Positions 1-14,464 of a DNA stretch of 64,000 bases are shown here, in pieces. Location of the stretch: the IMG/VR virus record IMGVR_UViG_3300012979_000003, positions 1-64,000 of that record. The stretch is one strand, 5' to 3'. This stretch comes from a virus (taxonomy: Duplodnaviria; Caudoviricetes). A program made the translations under genes and the position numbers. Positions within the stretch are counted from its first letter, which is position 1. Every line of letters starts with the position of its first letter. The notes under the pieces were generated by a model. It searched no databases and was not told the DNA's origin. It was given only the letters and a program-made list of their open reading frames with translations.

Positions 1-159
1 ATATTCCTCCAGTAGTCTCTGCACTTTCTTAGAGTGTACTCTAAGCTTAGCTCAGGATTGGCATGTAAAAATGTCATTTCTGAGCATTTTTATTTAGCTT
101 TCCCTGAATTCATCCGATTATTCAATAAGTATTTCTACTTAAGGGGTCCGACTTTCACA
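1..159 (-). mobile_element. Group I self-splicing intron, 5' portion (runs off the left edge of the window)
   Basis: The minus strand shows the conserved core in order: P-like AATTCAGGGAAAGC (110-97), Q-like GCCAATCCTGAGC (62-50), R-like GTGCAGAGACTA (24-13). A P1 helix forms between GGGTTT (164-159) and the IGS GGACCC (149-144) with a U.G wobble. A P2-like hairpin TAAGTAGAAATACTTA follows. Confidence 0.8.
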
Positions 160-197
160 AACCCTCGTCTTAATAGCTGTATAATGACCTAACAGTC

Positions 198-464
198 TTA
201 TTTATCGAAAGGGGTGTTATCTTTTGAGGTAAATGGTTGTTCTATGCCGTTTTTTGCACTATATAATAATTTCCATTTATCATCTTTGTGATAACTTTCG
301 AATTCATCACCATCTTGAGTAAAGACTATTTCGTTATCTTTTGGATTATAATAAACCCCATCCATTTCTGTTGAGCAACATTCCCATCCGCTATCACTTA
401 TCAAGCTTACATTTTTAGGAATGTTATTTTTCTCGATGATTTCACTTAATAGTTCAAACGTCAT
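198..464 (-). CDS. Hypothetical protein with a strong Shine-Dalgarno site
   Basis: 88-aa ORF ending in TAA. AGGAGGT lies at 479-473, just upstream of the ATG. Confidence 0.7.
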   Translation of the reverse strand: MTFELLSEIIEKNNIPKNVSLISDSGWECCSTEMDGVYYNPKDNEIVFTQDGDEFESYHKDDKWKLLYSAKNGIEQPFTSKDNTPFDK

Positions 465-1120
465 TTTAATTTACCTCCTGTTACTTTAAAGTTTTACACC
501 TGTTTATAAATCGAAGGTGTGCACATGACCAGCTTATGGTTTCCTGCACACACCCGCCTTAGTATAGGCTAGTAGTATGAGGACCGATCAAAGTCCTCAT
601 ACTTAGTATTTTACATCTCTTGTGAAGTGAGTGATTGTGTAGTCATCCTGTACACATTTTTCACCTTAGTGCCATCGAACAACTTTCACTCCTTGCATAA
701 AAGCTATCTCCACAAGTTAGATGATATATATTGATTACGCTGTCATTGCAACACATCCTACTGAGTTGGATTTTATGTAGGCTTAACACTCTGATGTTGC
801 AGACTATTTAAGTACCATGACAAATATTGAATATTGCTATTTATTTATCGTCAGTAGACTAGACATCGATCCCCTTGGGATATTTCTGTATTGGCATATA
901 GCACGAACATAAGATGTCATATCCTTTAGGCACATTGGCGCGTATTTTTTACCCTCCCTTTGACACAAAGGTACTTGGGCAAATTGTCAATTCAATTTTT
1001 CTCACTCACACTGCGTTGCGGAATCTGTGACACCTACTTATCTGTCGGTGCAGTCGGTCGTCCTGAGTGTCTGTTGTGAAAGGTGTTTACGTTTAGCATA
1101 ACACCTTGGGTAGTCGGTGA

Positions 1121-2342: not shown

Positions 2343-2672
2343 TTCGTATAAGTTTTAAGTTAAACAATGCGGACTTACATCTAGTCCTGGGTTAAATTCT
2401 CTACATCTGAGAATGACGATGGGTTTTTACATCTTTTCCTTGACGAATTAGAAAACAGAATAGTTTAATTGTTAGTACTATAGTTTAAAGTCAGTCCATT
2501 ACTGAACGGACTACCTGATTTTTACATCCGCACGATTGCAGACACAAATACGAATATTACAGAATTTCACATTTGTCGCATTCTCTGCTTGGTTCTGCTA
2601 TGCATCTGCTTACGCCCCACAGGTTTGTCATCTTCTGAAGATGCCCCTTTCGGGGCACCCAAAAACACATTA

Positions 2673-3189: not shown

Positions 3190-3576
3190 TTAATCTGTAA
3201 ATCCGTGATTTTTAAATCTATTTGGTAAAAGTTGGCGTAGTACCCAATCAGTCTCACGCATACATTCTGTGGAATATACTGATGGTAGTTTGCATGGGTC
3301 TGTTTTAATTATAAAACCATGTGCTGATATTTCACGTATTAACATAAAATTTACAGCTCTGTTTAATAATTCTCCAGCTAGGATTGTCGGTTGCGCGTTA
3401 TTTGTGTACGCGTTACGCACATATATTGTGTATCCACTATATCGAACAGTTAGTTTATTTTTTAAGTTTTGTACCCATCTAACCGTTGTCATTGTTTTTG
3501 GTAACTTTTTACCACCCATAATGCTAGCTAGTACAGCTTTTACCAGTAGGTATATACAGTTTTCTTCCTTTGTCAT
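3190..3576 (-). CDS. Hypothetical protein
   Basis: 128-aa ORF in the tightly packed minus-strand array. Confidence 0.6.
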   Translation of the reverse strand: MTKEENCIYLLVKAVLASIMGGKKLPKTMTTVRWVQNLKNKLTVRYSGYTIYVRNAYTNNAQPTILAGELLNRAVNFMLIREISAHGFIIKTDPCKLPSVYSTECMRETDWVLRQLLPNRFKNHGFTD

Positions 3577-3949
3577 TGATTAGTTTGTTTAATCTTTTGA
3601 CAATTTTTACACGTACTTCATGCGGTACTGGTAAGTATGGGCGATGGTTTAACATCGCATTTGCCCACATCCAAATTGAGTCGAATTTAACATATTTTTG
3701 GTTTTCTTCAGAATGCCACGTTGTTGTCATTGTGATAATCTGATTATATCTGCAATTTAATCTATTTACCATTTGCTCGTCTGTTAGCATATAATACAGT
3801 AATACACTGTAATGTTTTGTTAATGCTACTCTTATTGCTTCGCTAAGGGTTTTTGGATCTTTAATACAGTAATGTTTTCCTAAATCTGTTTTTACTCGAC
3901 GTTGGATTCTCCAATGCATGAATGAATTGATTGCACTATTCGGTTTCAT
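3524..3949 (-). CDS. Hypothetical protein (ends in TAG)
   Basis: 141-aa ORF overlapping both neighbours. The terminal codon at 3526-3524 is TAG. Confidence 0.55.
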   Translation of the reverse strand: MKPNSAINSFMHWRIQRRVKTDLGKHYCIKDPKTLSEAIRVALTKHYSVLLYYMLTDEQMVNRLNCRYNQIITMTTTWHSEENQKYVKFDSIWMWANAMLNHRPYLPVPHEVRVKIVKRLNKLINDKGRKLYIPTGKSCTS

Positions 3950-4142
3950 CGTTGTTCTGTTTATCGATTAAGTCTTCTATTTTTTCATCTTGATATTCAG
4001 CATGTGCTGCACACGCTGCAAATATTGCAATCATCAGAGTTACTACAAAGAGTAAAGAACCTGGCTTTGTTGTGTAGCAAAGCCCAAACGTTACGATTGC
4101 TATTGCTAACAATCTTAATAAGAATTTGATTTTCTTTTTCAT
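3936..4142 (-). CDS. Small two-TM membrane protein
   Basis: Start reassigned to MKKKIKFLLRLLAIAIV (ATG at 4142), because the longer ORF runs through the tRNA-like element. Two hydrophobic segments. Confidence 0.6.
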   Translation of the reverse strand: MKKKIKFLLRLLAIAIVTFGLCYTTKPGSLLFVVTLMIAIFAACAAHAEYQDEKIEDLIDKQNNDETE

Positions 4143-4166
4143 ATCACTGAGTTTTGAGTTAGTTTG

Positions 4167-4238
4167 TCGGTCGTCCAGGAATCGAACCTGAATTTTACTA
4201 TGTACATCTCGTATGTTCTGCCATTGAACTAACAACCG
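4167..4238 (-). tRNA. tRNA-like element with an aberrant anticodon arm (identity undetermined)
   Basis: CGGTTGT TA GTTC AATGGCA GAAC A TACGA GATGTACA TAGTA AAAT TCAGG TTCGATT CCTGG ACGACCG A. Acceptor, D and T arms are intact. The anticodon stem is mismatched with an 8-nt loop, and no CCA is encoded. Confidence 0.75.
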
Positions 4239-14389: not shown

Positions 14390-14464
14390 TCCCCTATGGT
14401 GTAATGGTTAGCACAGGAGGCTCTAACCCTCTTAGTCTGAGTTCGAATCTTAGTGGGGGTACCA
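14390..14464 (+). tRNA. Amber suppressor tRNA (anticodon CUA), tRNA-Gln-like body
   Basis: TCCCCTA TG GTGT AATGGTTA GCAC A GGAGG CT CTA AC CCTCT TAGT CTGAG TTCGAAT CTTAG TGGGGGT A CCA. The anticodon CTA is at 14423-14425 and the 1:72 pair is unpaired. Confidence 0.95.

Follow-up and report, generated by a model that had tools for sequence, protein, structure and literature searches.

The DNA analysed here (the window) comprises the first 64 kb, positions 1 to 64,000, of the viral contig IMGVR_UViG_3300012979_000003, which is 100,253 nt long. On the minus strand, window 201..1 very probably forms the start of a phage-encoded, circularly permuted, two-piece transfer-messenger RNA (tmRNA) gene, the acceptor piece of which is interrupted by a mobile group I intron. 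The first and last 85 nt of the contig are identical (an exact repeat found by script, with the copy at window 1..85 matching contig 100169-100253), leaving 100,168 unique bases, and IMG/VR classes the contig as complete, with 'direct terminal repeats'. This 85-nt terminal direct repeat indicates that the genome is circular or terminally redundant; therefore, the left edge of the window joins the right end of the contig. The stretch of this phage that runs across the circular junction is referred to as L001, in which positions 4169..3459 correspond to contig 100168..99458. The parts of the proposed tmRNA gene, in the order of the minus strand, are as follows:

Window 160..201, minus strand: 5' exon (42 nt), the 5' part of the acceptor piece, placed by the ARAGORN tRNA-like domain on the spliced product, by alignment with 79 unique homologues, and by the RF04321 alignment of an intronless homologue
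Window 201-195, minus strand: P2c strand AUAAGAC, within the 5' exon
Window 187-180, minus strand: P2b strand, within the 5' exon
Window 177-170, minus strand: P2a 3' strand GCUAUUAA, within the 5' exon
Window 169-167, minus strand: GAC, within the 5' exon
Window 166-162, minus strand: T-stem 5' strand GAGGG, within the 5' exon
Window 161-160, minus strand: first two T-loop bases, U161 and U160, the end of the 5' exon
L001 3458..3441, minus strand: 3' exon CGAATCCCTC-TACCTCC-A, 870 nt after the 5' splice site
Between 3' exon and coding piece, minus-strand order: spacer of 115 nt
L001 3325-~3181, minus strand: coding piece of ~145 nt, with GGGGGUA, a D-loop analogue, the tag frame, and a conserved 3' hairpin
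L001 3263-3222, minus strand: tag frame GGC...UGA, encoding GKTFVTDYTCIAA, from ARAGORN on the spliced product

When the 870 nt between the exons are removed in silico, ARAGORN recognizes a permuted tmRNA. The 3' tRNA-like half of this RNA reads GCTATTAA-GAC-GAGGG-TTCGAAT-CCCTC-TACCTCC-A, and the 5' half, 115 nt further downstream, reads GGGGGTA-TTTTGGTTTTGA-TTAGTAGT. Together, the halves form a 7-bp acceptor stem (GGGGGUA/UACCUCC-A) with a G3.U70 pair and the discriminator A73. The T-arm GAGGG-UUCGAAU-CCCUC arises only after exon joining. The tag GKTFVTDYTCIAA is read from a resume codon, has a C-terminus of the hydrophobic-Ala-Ala type, and is followed by a UGA stop codon, which lies in a covarying hairpin, and a tRNA-like element adjoins the coding piece downstream in the order of minus-strand transcription. 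On the unspliced genome ARAGORN reports no tmRNA, and the Rfam tmRNA models find no match on the unspliced phage DNA. As RNA, the 3' exon is CGAAUCCCUC-UACCUCC-A; by our estimate, the pattern CRAnTCCCTC is expected to occur by chance ~0.01 times in ~1.5 kb.

A sequence-only reading of the window had previously placed a group I intron core on the minus strand, with a splice site right after position 160, and had proposed an intron-interrupted phage tmRNA. The core is borne out by an RF00028 match at window 170..1, the splice site by the P1 pair U160.G148, and the tmRNA by the ARAGORN call on the spliced product together with intronless homologues annotated as SsrA. Circular permutation, which had been suspected, is evident in the 5' half (GGGGGTA...) found 115 nt downstream of the acceptor piece, and the elements P7 to P9, named as a check on the intron, are present, with RF00028 positions 69-253 matched across the circular junction. 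The same reading held that no start codon leads into the exon; indeed, the stop codon of the upstream 88-amino acid (aa) open reading frame (ORF), at 200-198, falls within the first helix strand of the acceptor piece, and no ATG precedes the 42-nt exon. No reading frame crosses the exon junction, and ligation of the exons yields a T-arm with an acceptor strand rather than a restored protein frame. The 3' exon had been expected to run from CRAnTCCCTC to CCA. It does begin with CGAATCCCTC, followed by TACCTCC-A, but only the first C of CCA is encoded.

The tmRNA family and its covariation

The coding piece is 73-82% identical to sequences of human-gut crAss-like phages. In the RefSeq genomes cr125_1, cr114_1, and cr52_1 (Suoliviridae), the matching stretch is intronless and is annotated as "transfer-messenger RNA, SsrA"; ARAGORN finds permuted tmRNAs with continuous T-arms in these copies, with the tags GNFYVTDYTRIAA / GNTSYVTDYTRLVA. 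With these three genes, the gene studied here shares 73-78% identity over the coding piece, the tag core, the 5' motif (U)GACUGUUAGGUC, the 3' hairpin, and the neighbouring genes, whereas it is intron-split and they are uninterrupted. The Rfam model of permuted tmRNA (RF04321, tmRNA_permuted) aligns over its whole length to the cr125_1 homologue (E 6e-8) and contains the same helices as those proposed here. In cr6_1, cr128_1, and cr1_1, the gene is split by an intron and no tmRNA is annotated in RefSeq. No discussion of a crAss-like phage tmRNA was found in the literature searched.

The family was collected with a 26-nt search pattern based on the coding piece's conserved 3' hairpin; the pattern matched at least 116 IMG/VR loci. 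Among the matches listed, 73 have a continuous canonical T-arm, 13 (the present gene counted) are split as in this phage, and ~27 are intronless with non-canonical T-loops of 6 or 8 nt. The tag core (F/Y)V(T/M)DYTx(I/L)xA is kept with synonymous differences across the loci, and the tag ends in TGA in 78 of those listed, in TAA in 38, and in TAG in none. Every relative has the acceptor piece ahead of the coding piece, and in the split loci the spacer between them measures 68-192 nt. Loci with the intron and loci without it can have identical exons, and the intronless T-loop has the DNA sequence GGGTTCGAMTCCC.

Compensatory double changes are present in all five T-stem pairs and in three acceptor pairs (79 unique sequences). 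The acceptor stem is GGGGGUA/UACCUCC in this phage and GGGGCAU/AUGCUCC in most relatives; P2c, the helix between the coding piece and the 5' end of the acceptor piece, is AUAAGAC/GUCUUAU as against AUUGAC/GUCAAU in relatives; and the stop-codon hairpin is UGCAU/AUGCA as against CGUAU/AUACG. For P2a and P2b, a column-based analysis of covariation gives ~60% paired, a count that is not meaningful because the alignment register varies between lineages.

Several points weigh against the assignment, among them the last base of the intron, which is treated below. In the relatives, the acceptor 3' strands were identified through a search for sequence complementary to the 5' strand, so that their 100% pairing is partly by construction; independently of the search design, the complement always lies directly 3' of the T-arm, at a constant distance from the motif (U)GACUGUUAGGUC. 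RF04321 scores 46.3 bits on the cr125_1 homologue, slightly under its 47-bit cut-off. The CCA end is incompletely encoded, with only A-C after the acceptor stem, and no pseudoknots have been established in the two-piece tmRNA.

Individual members of the family vary further. In cr114_1, a complete tRNA-His(GTG) gene (L006 2351-2423) lies within the spacer that separates the two tmRNA pieces, acceptor and coding; a tRNA within a permuted spacer has been described as unique to one metagenome-assembled genome (PMC11915505). Among the non-canonical loci (L009, L015, L025, L040, L049, L050, L053, and others) are the 8-nt T-loops UAUCGUAU and UCUCGGAU and the 6-nt T-loop UUCGCC, and in the 6-nt group the GG of the D-loop analogue is also lost. 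ARAGORN called none of the ~27 non-canonical loci, which may represent rewired elbows or alleles resistant to homing endonucleases. An unrelated viral contig, L146 (IMGVR_UViG_3300028840_006756), also carries a permuted tmRNA, whose T-arm and acceptor 3' half are the same as here; the coding piece of this RNA reads GGGGGTAACCTGGTTTCGAC..., and its tag, approximately GEHKLAA, ends in TAG.

The group I intron and its putative antisense endonuclease

The intron is 870 nt long in total, with 159 nt in the window and the rest across the contig junction. Its parts are as follows:

Window 1..159, minus strand: 5' 159 nt of the intron, with the P1 3' strand/guide (150-144), P2 (140-127), the P3 5' strand (117-112), P4-P6, and the start of P7/P7.1
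Window 144..150, minus strand: internal guide sequence CGGACCC, from the sequence and the RF00028 alignment, with G148 pairing to U160
Contig 100168..99458 (L001 4169..3459), minus strand: remainder of the intron, with P7.1/7.2, P3', P8, P7', P9, the antisense endonuclease ORF, and a 3' tail ending in AAAGA
L001 3529..4134, plus strand (opposite to the intron): putative endonuclease ORF of 201 aa, assigned from PHROG families
Contig 99477-99502 (L001 3478-3503), plus strand: motif GCAAC-N16-CGTTA, 26 nt upstream of the endonuclease ATG

RF00028 matches window 170..1 on the minus strand with 45.4 bits (E 4e-10; model 1-153, cut on the 3' side by the window edge) and the remainder at L001 4254..4082 with 54.6 bits (model 69-253, cut on the 5' side). 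These overlapping half-matches fit one model, and relatives carry the intron as one contiguous piece. One such relative, L106, has a 297-nt intron that is devoid of an endonuclease ORF, has a core 96% identical to that of this phage, and scores 96.7 bits against the full-length model (cut-off 50), which argues that the match is not due to chance. The L106 intron is missing 574 nt, including the endonuclease gene, and the comparison places that gene after a P9.x hairpin and before the final 16 nt of the intron. A G after P9 (L001 4082, where the Rfam model ends) was considered as the 3' splice site and rejected: the joined product has no T-arm, and in L106 the intron extends ~50 nt past that point.

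In P1, the exon sequence GGGUU (164-160) pairs with GGACCC (149-144), creating the U160.G148 wobble at the splice site, while P10 can form between G149, C150, and U151 and CGA, the first three bases of the 3' exon. The same intron interrupts the gene at the same point (GGGTT|TGTGAAA...AAGA|CGA) in 13 sequences from a first scan, this phage included, and in loci from a second scan, with intron lengths of 868-872 nt; the resulting clade has 19 members, truncated loci counted. The U.G wobble of P1 is kept in the 19 members and in sister introns, which have the same guide design at the same T-loop site and end in G. A consensus fold of 8 relatives recovers P1, P2, P3, P6a, P7.1/7.2, and P8, with compensatory double changes in 18 of the 63 intron pairs, and the P7-P3' hairpin points to subgroup IA (an IA-like intron). 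The exact 5' junction pattern has no match in bacterial genomes, and a looser one gave chance matches only in these genomes, apart from one unclear Prevotella locus. In viral sequences, a looser pattern for position 3 returned mostly noise; filtering left four small introns in standard tmRNA genes.

The ORF within the intron matches the PHROG families phrog_3322 (1e-21), phrog_1035 (endonuclease VII), and phrog_3118 (HNH); it has no Pfam match, HNH models included. Its homologue in cr6_1 is annotated as 'endonuclease', and it shares 49% identity with the cr128_1 "endonuclease", which belongs to an intron at the same T-loop point. The last ~28 codons of the ORF are the complement of P9-P7'-P8. 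The sequence-only reading had envisaged that splicing gates ribosome rescue, for which nothing was found in support; the intron looks like a selfish mobile element that needs to be removed.

The motif upstream of the endonuclease gene, (G/C)AAC-N16-CGTTA, occurs 5 times in the genome compared to 1.4 expected, and related introns have similar motifs at the equivalent place. The motif is a candidate promoter for an extracytoplasmic function (ECF)-like sigma factor encoded by the phage. The genome count and the sigma factor gene are located as follows:

Window 24319, 28302, and 43475, plus strand: other copies of the motif
Contig 84094-84119, minus strand: other copy of the motif
L001 737-1288, minus strand: ECF-like sigma factor, a phage gene

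Insertion between loop bases 2 and 3 corresponds to internucleotide position 3 of the T-loop in the numbering of a recent tmRNA catalogue (PMC11915505). The same tmRNA family is interrupted by related introns elsewhere in the loop in two other loci: after loop base 7 in L030 (UUCGACU|...UUUAUG|CCCUC) and after loop base 6 in cr1_1 (UUCGAU|...AUCUG|UCCCUC). Over 186 nt from P3 to P7', the L030 core is 100% identical to that of the present intron, whereas identity falls to 55% in P1-P2 and to 36% in the rest. L030 and cr1_1 have endonucleases of the canonical HNH family PF01844 that are 52% identical to each other; with the endonuclease of this phage, they share only a zinc-finger-like N-terminus. 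One catalytic core has thus been joined to guide and endonuclease modules that differ from intron to intron. In three introns, endonuclease genes from two unrelated families run in the same frame through the complement of J8/7-P7 (L001 4051-4134, plus strand; L030 4323-4400; L124 3127-3200) and consequently have the C-terminal peptide TISSP in common.

The last base of the intron

The intron ends in ...CAAAGA|CGAAU, and the base before the 3' exon is A in 19 of the 19 clade members, rather than the terminal G that the sequence-only reading had anticipated. The nearby G lies one base too early to restore a 7-nt loop. According to the textbook mechanism of group I splicing, exon ligation after a terminal base other than G is expected to be poor. 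Among the sister introns, that of cr128_1 ends in G (...CUUCG|CGAAU), as do those of L319, L384, and L390, which are 222-228 nt long and interrupt standard tmRNA genes on other viral contigs. The intron of L357, sister to that of L390, ends in ...UAUUUA|CGAAA, with no G nearby. A literature search for natural introns with a terminal base other than G yielded nothing usable.

Two readings of the ligation point are about equally likely, and each falls somewhat short of an even chance. In the first, the exons may be ligated as UU|CGA after the terminal A, which would give the ligated exons GGGUUCGA with the junction GGGUUCGAAU. P10 (CGA/UCG) would then be contiguous with P1, and sister introns ligate at this point. 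There are intron-free alleles with identical exons, the D-loop has the canonical GG, and ARAGORN recognizes the product.

In the second, the ribozyme may use the G one base upstream (…AAAG|A), so that the acceptor piece would carry the 8-nt T-loop UUACGAAU instead of UUCGAAU (ligated exons GGGUUACGA, junction GGGUUACGAAU). In P7, the pair that binds the guanosine is an ordinary G-C, and the L030 core, identical throughout its 186 nt, belongs to an intron ending in G. The AA before the upstream G can pair with the UU of J7/9 (P9.0), and likewise in L390 the UU before the terminal G can pair with AA. Furthermore, both the G and the A are invariant in the 19 loci, in which the one-step change from A to G is never seen, and intronless family members with 8-nt T-loops (UAUCGUAU, UCUCGGAU) do exist. 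On the other hand, use of this G would shift P10 by one base relative to P1; UU|CGA is the ligation point of four sister introns that share the P1 design, intronless alleles with identical exons carry a 7-nt loop, and ARAGORN sees no tmRNA in the product. A junction of the form GGGT(T)ACGA... is absent from the metagenome collection, a weak argument as few RNA assemblies are included.

It is unlikely that there is no productive splicing at all. A specific version of this, that the intron is unable to complete exon ligation and that the tmRNA gene of the clade has been inactivated by a selfish intron kept only via endonuclease-driven homing, is held to be improbable. No clade member has a terminal G at the exon boundary, L357 is an isolated second loss of that G and resembles decay, and the intron is polymorphic among otherwise identical alleles, all of which would fit such a history. 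However, pairing in P2, P6a, P8, and P9 is kept by compensatory changes while the cores of the clade are 87-97% identical, the ORF-less 297-nt copy retains the whole ribozyme, the tmRNA exons are intact in intron-bearing phages, and compensatory changes specific to this phage are present in its acceptor stem, P2c, and tag hairpin. The continued covariation of both ribozyme and tmRNA helices thus makes a dead intron unlikely. Ligation at U|ACGA, to which the missing GGGT(T)ACGA... junction applies equally, is very doubtful. ARAGORN is generally prone to false positives in its permuted-tmRNA mode, and the Rfam tmRNA models are silent on the unspliced DNA, but that the call is false and the exon is part of a tRNA, of some other structured RNA, or of a short coding exon is scarcely credible, given homologues annotated as SsrA and aligned over the full RF04321 model, the presence of G3.U70 and A73, covarying helices, a tag frame kept with synonymous variation and only TGA or TAA stops in the 116 loci listed, and an exon junction crossed by no reading frame.

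If ligation does follow the terminal A, a broader and more tentative proposal can be made: in four phage tmRNA lineages, a whole clade of naturally occurring group I introns (19 loci) may ligate exons after a terminal adenosine despite a standard G-C guanosine-binding site, as a selected exception to the omega-G rule, with the same core possibly swapped between targeting and endonuclease modules for T-loop positions 3, 7, and 8.

Genome setting and known systems

The sequence-only reading took the phage to be stop-codon-recoded, and the genome agrees: coverage by ORFs of at least 150 codons rises from 61% with the standard code to 85% with TAG read as sense, one TAG-open ORF has 5,373 codons, and a tRNA with a CUA anticodon is found at 14390. 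No SmpB gene (PF01668) was found in the phage genome. Megablast and blastn searches of 7.5-12 kb stretches against phage records returned no relatives, only collagen-repeat noise; the phage is probably crAss-like, judging by tmRNA and intron homology and common neighbouring genes. Features around the tmRNA gene and elsewhere in the genome include the following:

Window 198..464, minus strand: ORF of 88 aa with no assigned function, from the ORF list, with a strong AGGAGG ribosome-binding site
Window 574-603: perfect 11-bp hairpin, in a 640-nt ORF-free stretch (window 465-1120, minus strand)
Window 2513-2642, minus strand: Hatchet self-cleaving ribozyme (RF02678, full model, 82.1 bits, cut-off 51)
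Window 4166-4238, minus strand: second tRNA-like gene, to which ARAGORN assigns the 4-base anticodon tgta
L001 3109-3180 (contig 99108-99179), minus strand: tRNA-like gene with an 8-nt anticodon loop and encoded CCA (Rfam tRNA, 43.7 bits)
L001 2441-2845, minus strand: 134-aa protein, two genes downstream of the tmRNA, resembling the L7/L12 C-terminal domain

The 88-aa ORF matched no Pfam or PHROG family. The sequence GGAGGTA at window 477-471 was rejected as an acceptor 5' strand, since it is the ribosome-binding site of this ORF. Directly upstream of the cr125_1 tmRNA gene lies a RAGATH-9 RNA (RF03146, 89.4 bits, cut on the 5' side by the search range; L004 2150-2256, plus strand), which has no match in the equivalent ORF-free stretch of this phage (window 465-1120, minus strand). 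The tRNA-like gene with the 8-nt anticodon loop begins right at the 3' end of the tmRNA coding piece, and at the equivalent place relatives have a T-arm/acceptor minihelix, which may be a processing signal. It is followed on the same strand by the L7/L12-like protein (PF00542, E 9e-5, slightly under the cut-off) and the sigma factor. The tmRNA genes of cr125_1 and cr114_1 have the same neighbours, and the equivalent of the L7/L12-like protein is annotated there as 'ribosomal protein-like'.

A catalogue of bacterial tmRNA genes distinguishes three forms: standard, intron, and permuted (PMC11915505). Its T-loop introns lie at positions 7, 8, 2, and 3, with position 3 in Bacteroidia only; they encode LAGLIDADG homing genes only, none exceeds 700 bp, and all have a terminal G (PMC11915505). 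The first bacterial case of an intron in the T-psi-C loop is credited there to its ref. 11 (PMC11915505). Like the bacterial intron form, the phage gene has a group I intron in the T-loop, a -1 U in a U.G pair, a P7.1/7.2 extension, and insertion at position 3; unlike it, the gene is permuted and phage-encoded, and the last base of its intron is A (PMC11915505). The intron also differs from the catalogued ones in its length of 870 nt and its opposite-strand gene of probable HNH/EndoVII type in place of LAGLIDADG (PMC11915505). The definition of the intron form (a standard gene, -1 U, and omega G) is therefore not that of the phage gene, which works like the intron form, yet is a combined form; the catalogue has no category for a permuted-plus-intron gene (PMC11915505).

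Bacteroidia are the host class of crAss-like phages. The order of the pieces, acceptor before coding, is that of the two-piece tmRNA of Alphaproteobacteria, some Betaproteobacteria, and Cyanobacteria (RF01849-51, merged in RF04321), in which the spacer is removed by tRNA-processing enzymes and the pieces are joined by the acceptor stem and P2 helices, as is proposed for the phage gene. In contrast to these bacterial tmRNAs, the phage family scores at or below the model's cut-off (46.3 vs. 47 bits for cr125_1) and has a short coding piece (~145 nt), and no match to the clade-specific models RF01849-51 was listed. The phage T-arm and acceptor sequences resemble the 3' ends of standard tmRNAs in other viral contigs, which hints at a separate origin of the permutation.

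The closest likeness for the position of the endonuclease gene is with nuclear rDNA introns that carry antisense homing endonuclease genes, such as Didymium S956-2 (PMC3679873, PMC9548176). In both, the gene lies in a peripheral part of the ribozyme, on the opposite strand, and its expression is thereby uncoupled from that of the host RNA. While the Didymium-type introns are eukaryotic, nuclear, and carry His-Cys box genes, the present intron resides in a phage, the end of its ORF is the complement of P9-P7'-P8, and its 3' tail contains the promoter-like motif. The individual ingredients are thus known, and the intronless gene is already labelled in RefSeq; specific to the phage case are the antisense gene of probable HNH/EndoVII type, the intron length, the clade-wide missing terminal G, and the retargeted core.

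In the proposed mechanism, the ribozyme would excise itself and restore the T-loop, after which host tRNA-processing enzymes would remove the spacer and complete the CCA end. The two pieces would be held together by the acceptor stem and by P2a, P2b, and P2c. Host alanyl-tRNA synthetase (AlaRS) would then charge the RNA with alanine through G3.U70 and A73, and host SmpB would deliver it to stalled ribosomes, where the tag would be added and translation terminated at the UGA. Such an RNA could rescue ribosomes stalled on broken or read-through mRNAs during infection, a demand that plausibly grows once host TAG stops are read through by a suppressor tRNA. Spread of the intron to intronless alleles would be the work of the endonuclease, whose expression is probably driven by its own promoter-like motif in the intron 3' tail.

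To the three catalogued forms of tmRNA gene, this gene adds a permuted-plus-intron form, a phage host, an antisense homing gene of probable HNH type, and a longer intron. Because standard finders (ARAGORN, Rfam) miss the intron-split gene, phage tmRNA genes are under-counted. The clade offers a natural test of the terminal-G rule, and it shows clearly how one catalytic core has been redirected to neighbouring sites as its guide and endonuclease modules were exchanged. Finally, that a TAG-reassigning phage has its own rescue RNA, beside a sigma factor and an L7/L12-like protein, suggests that it deliberately manages host ribosomes that have stalled.

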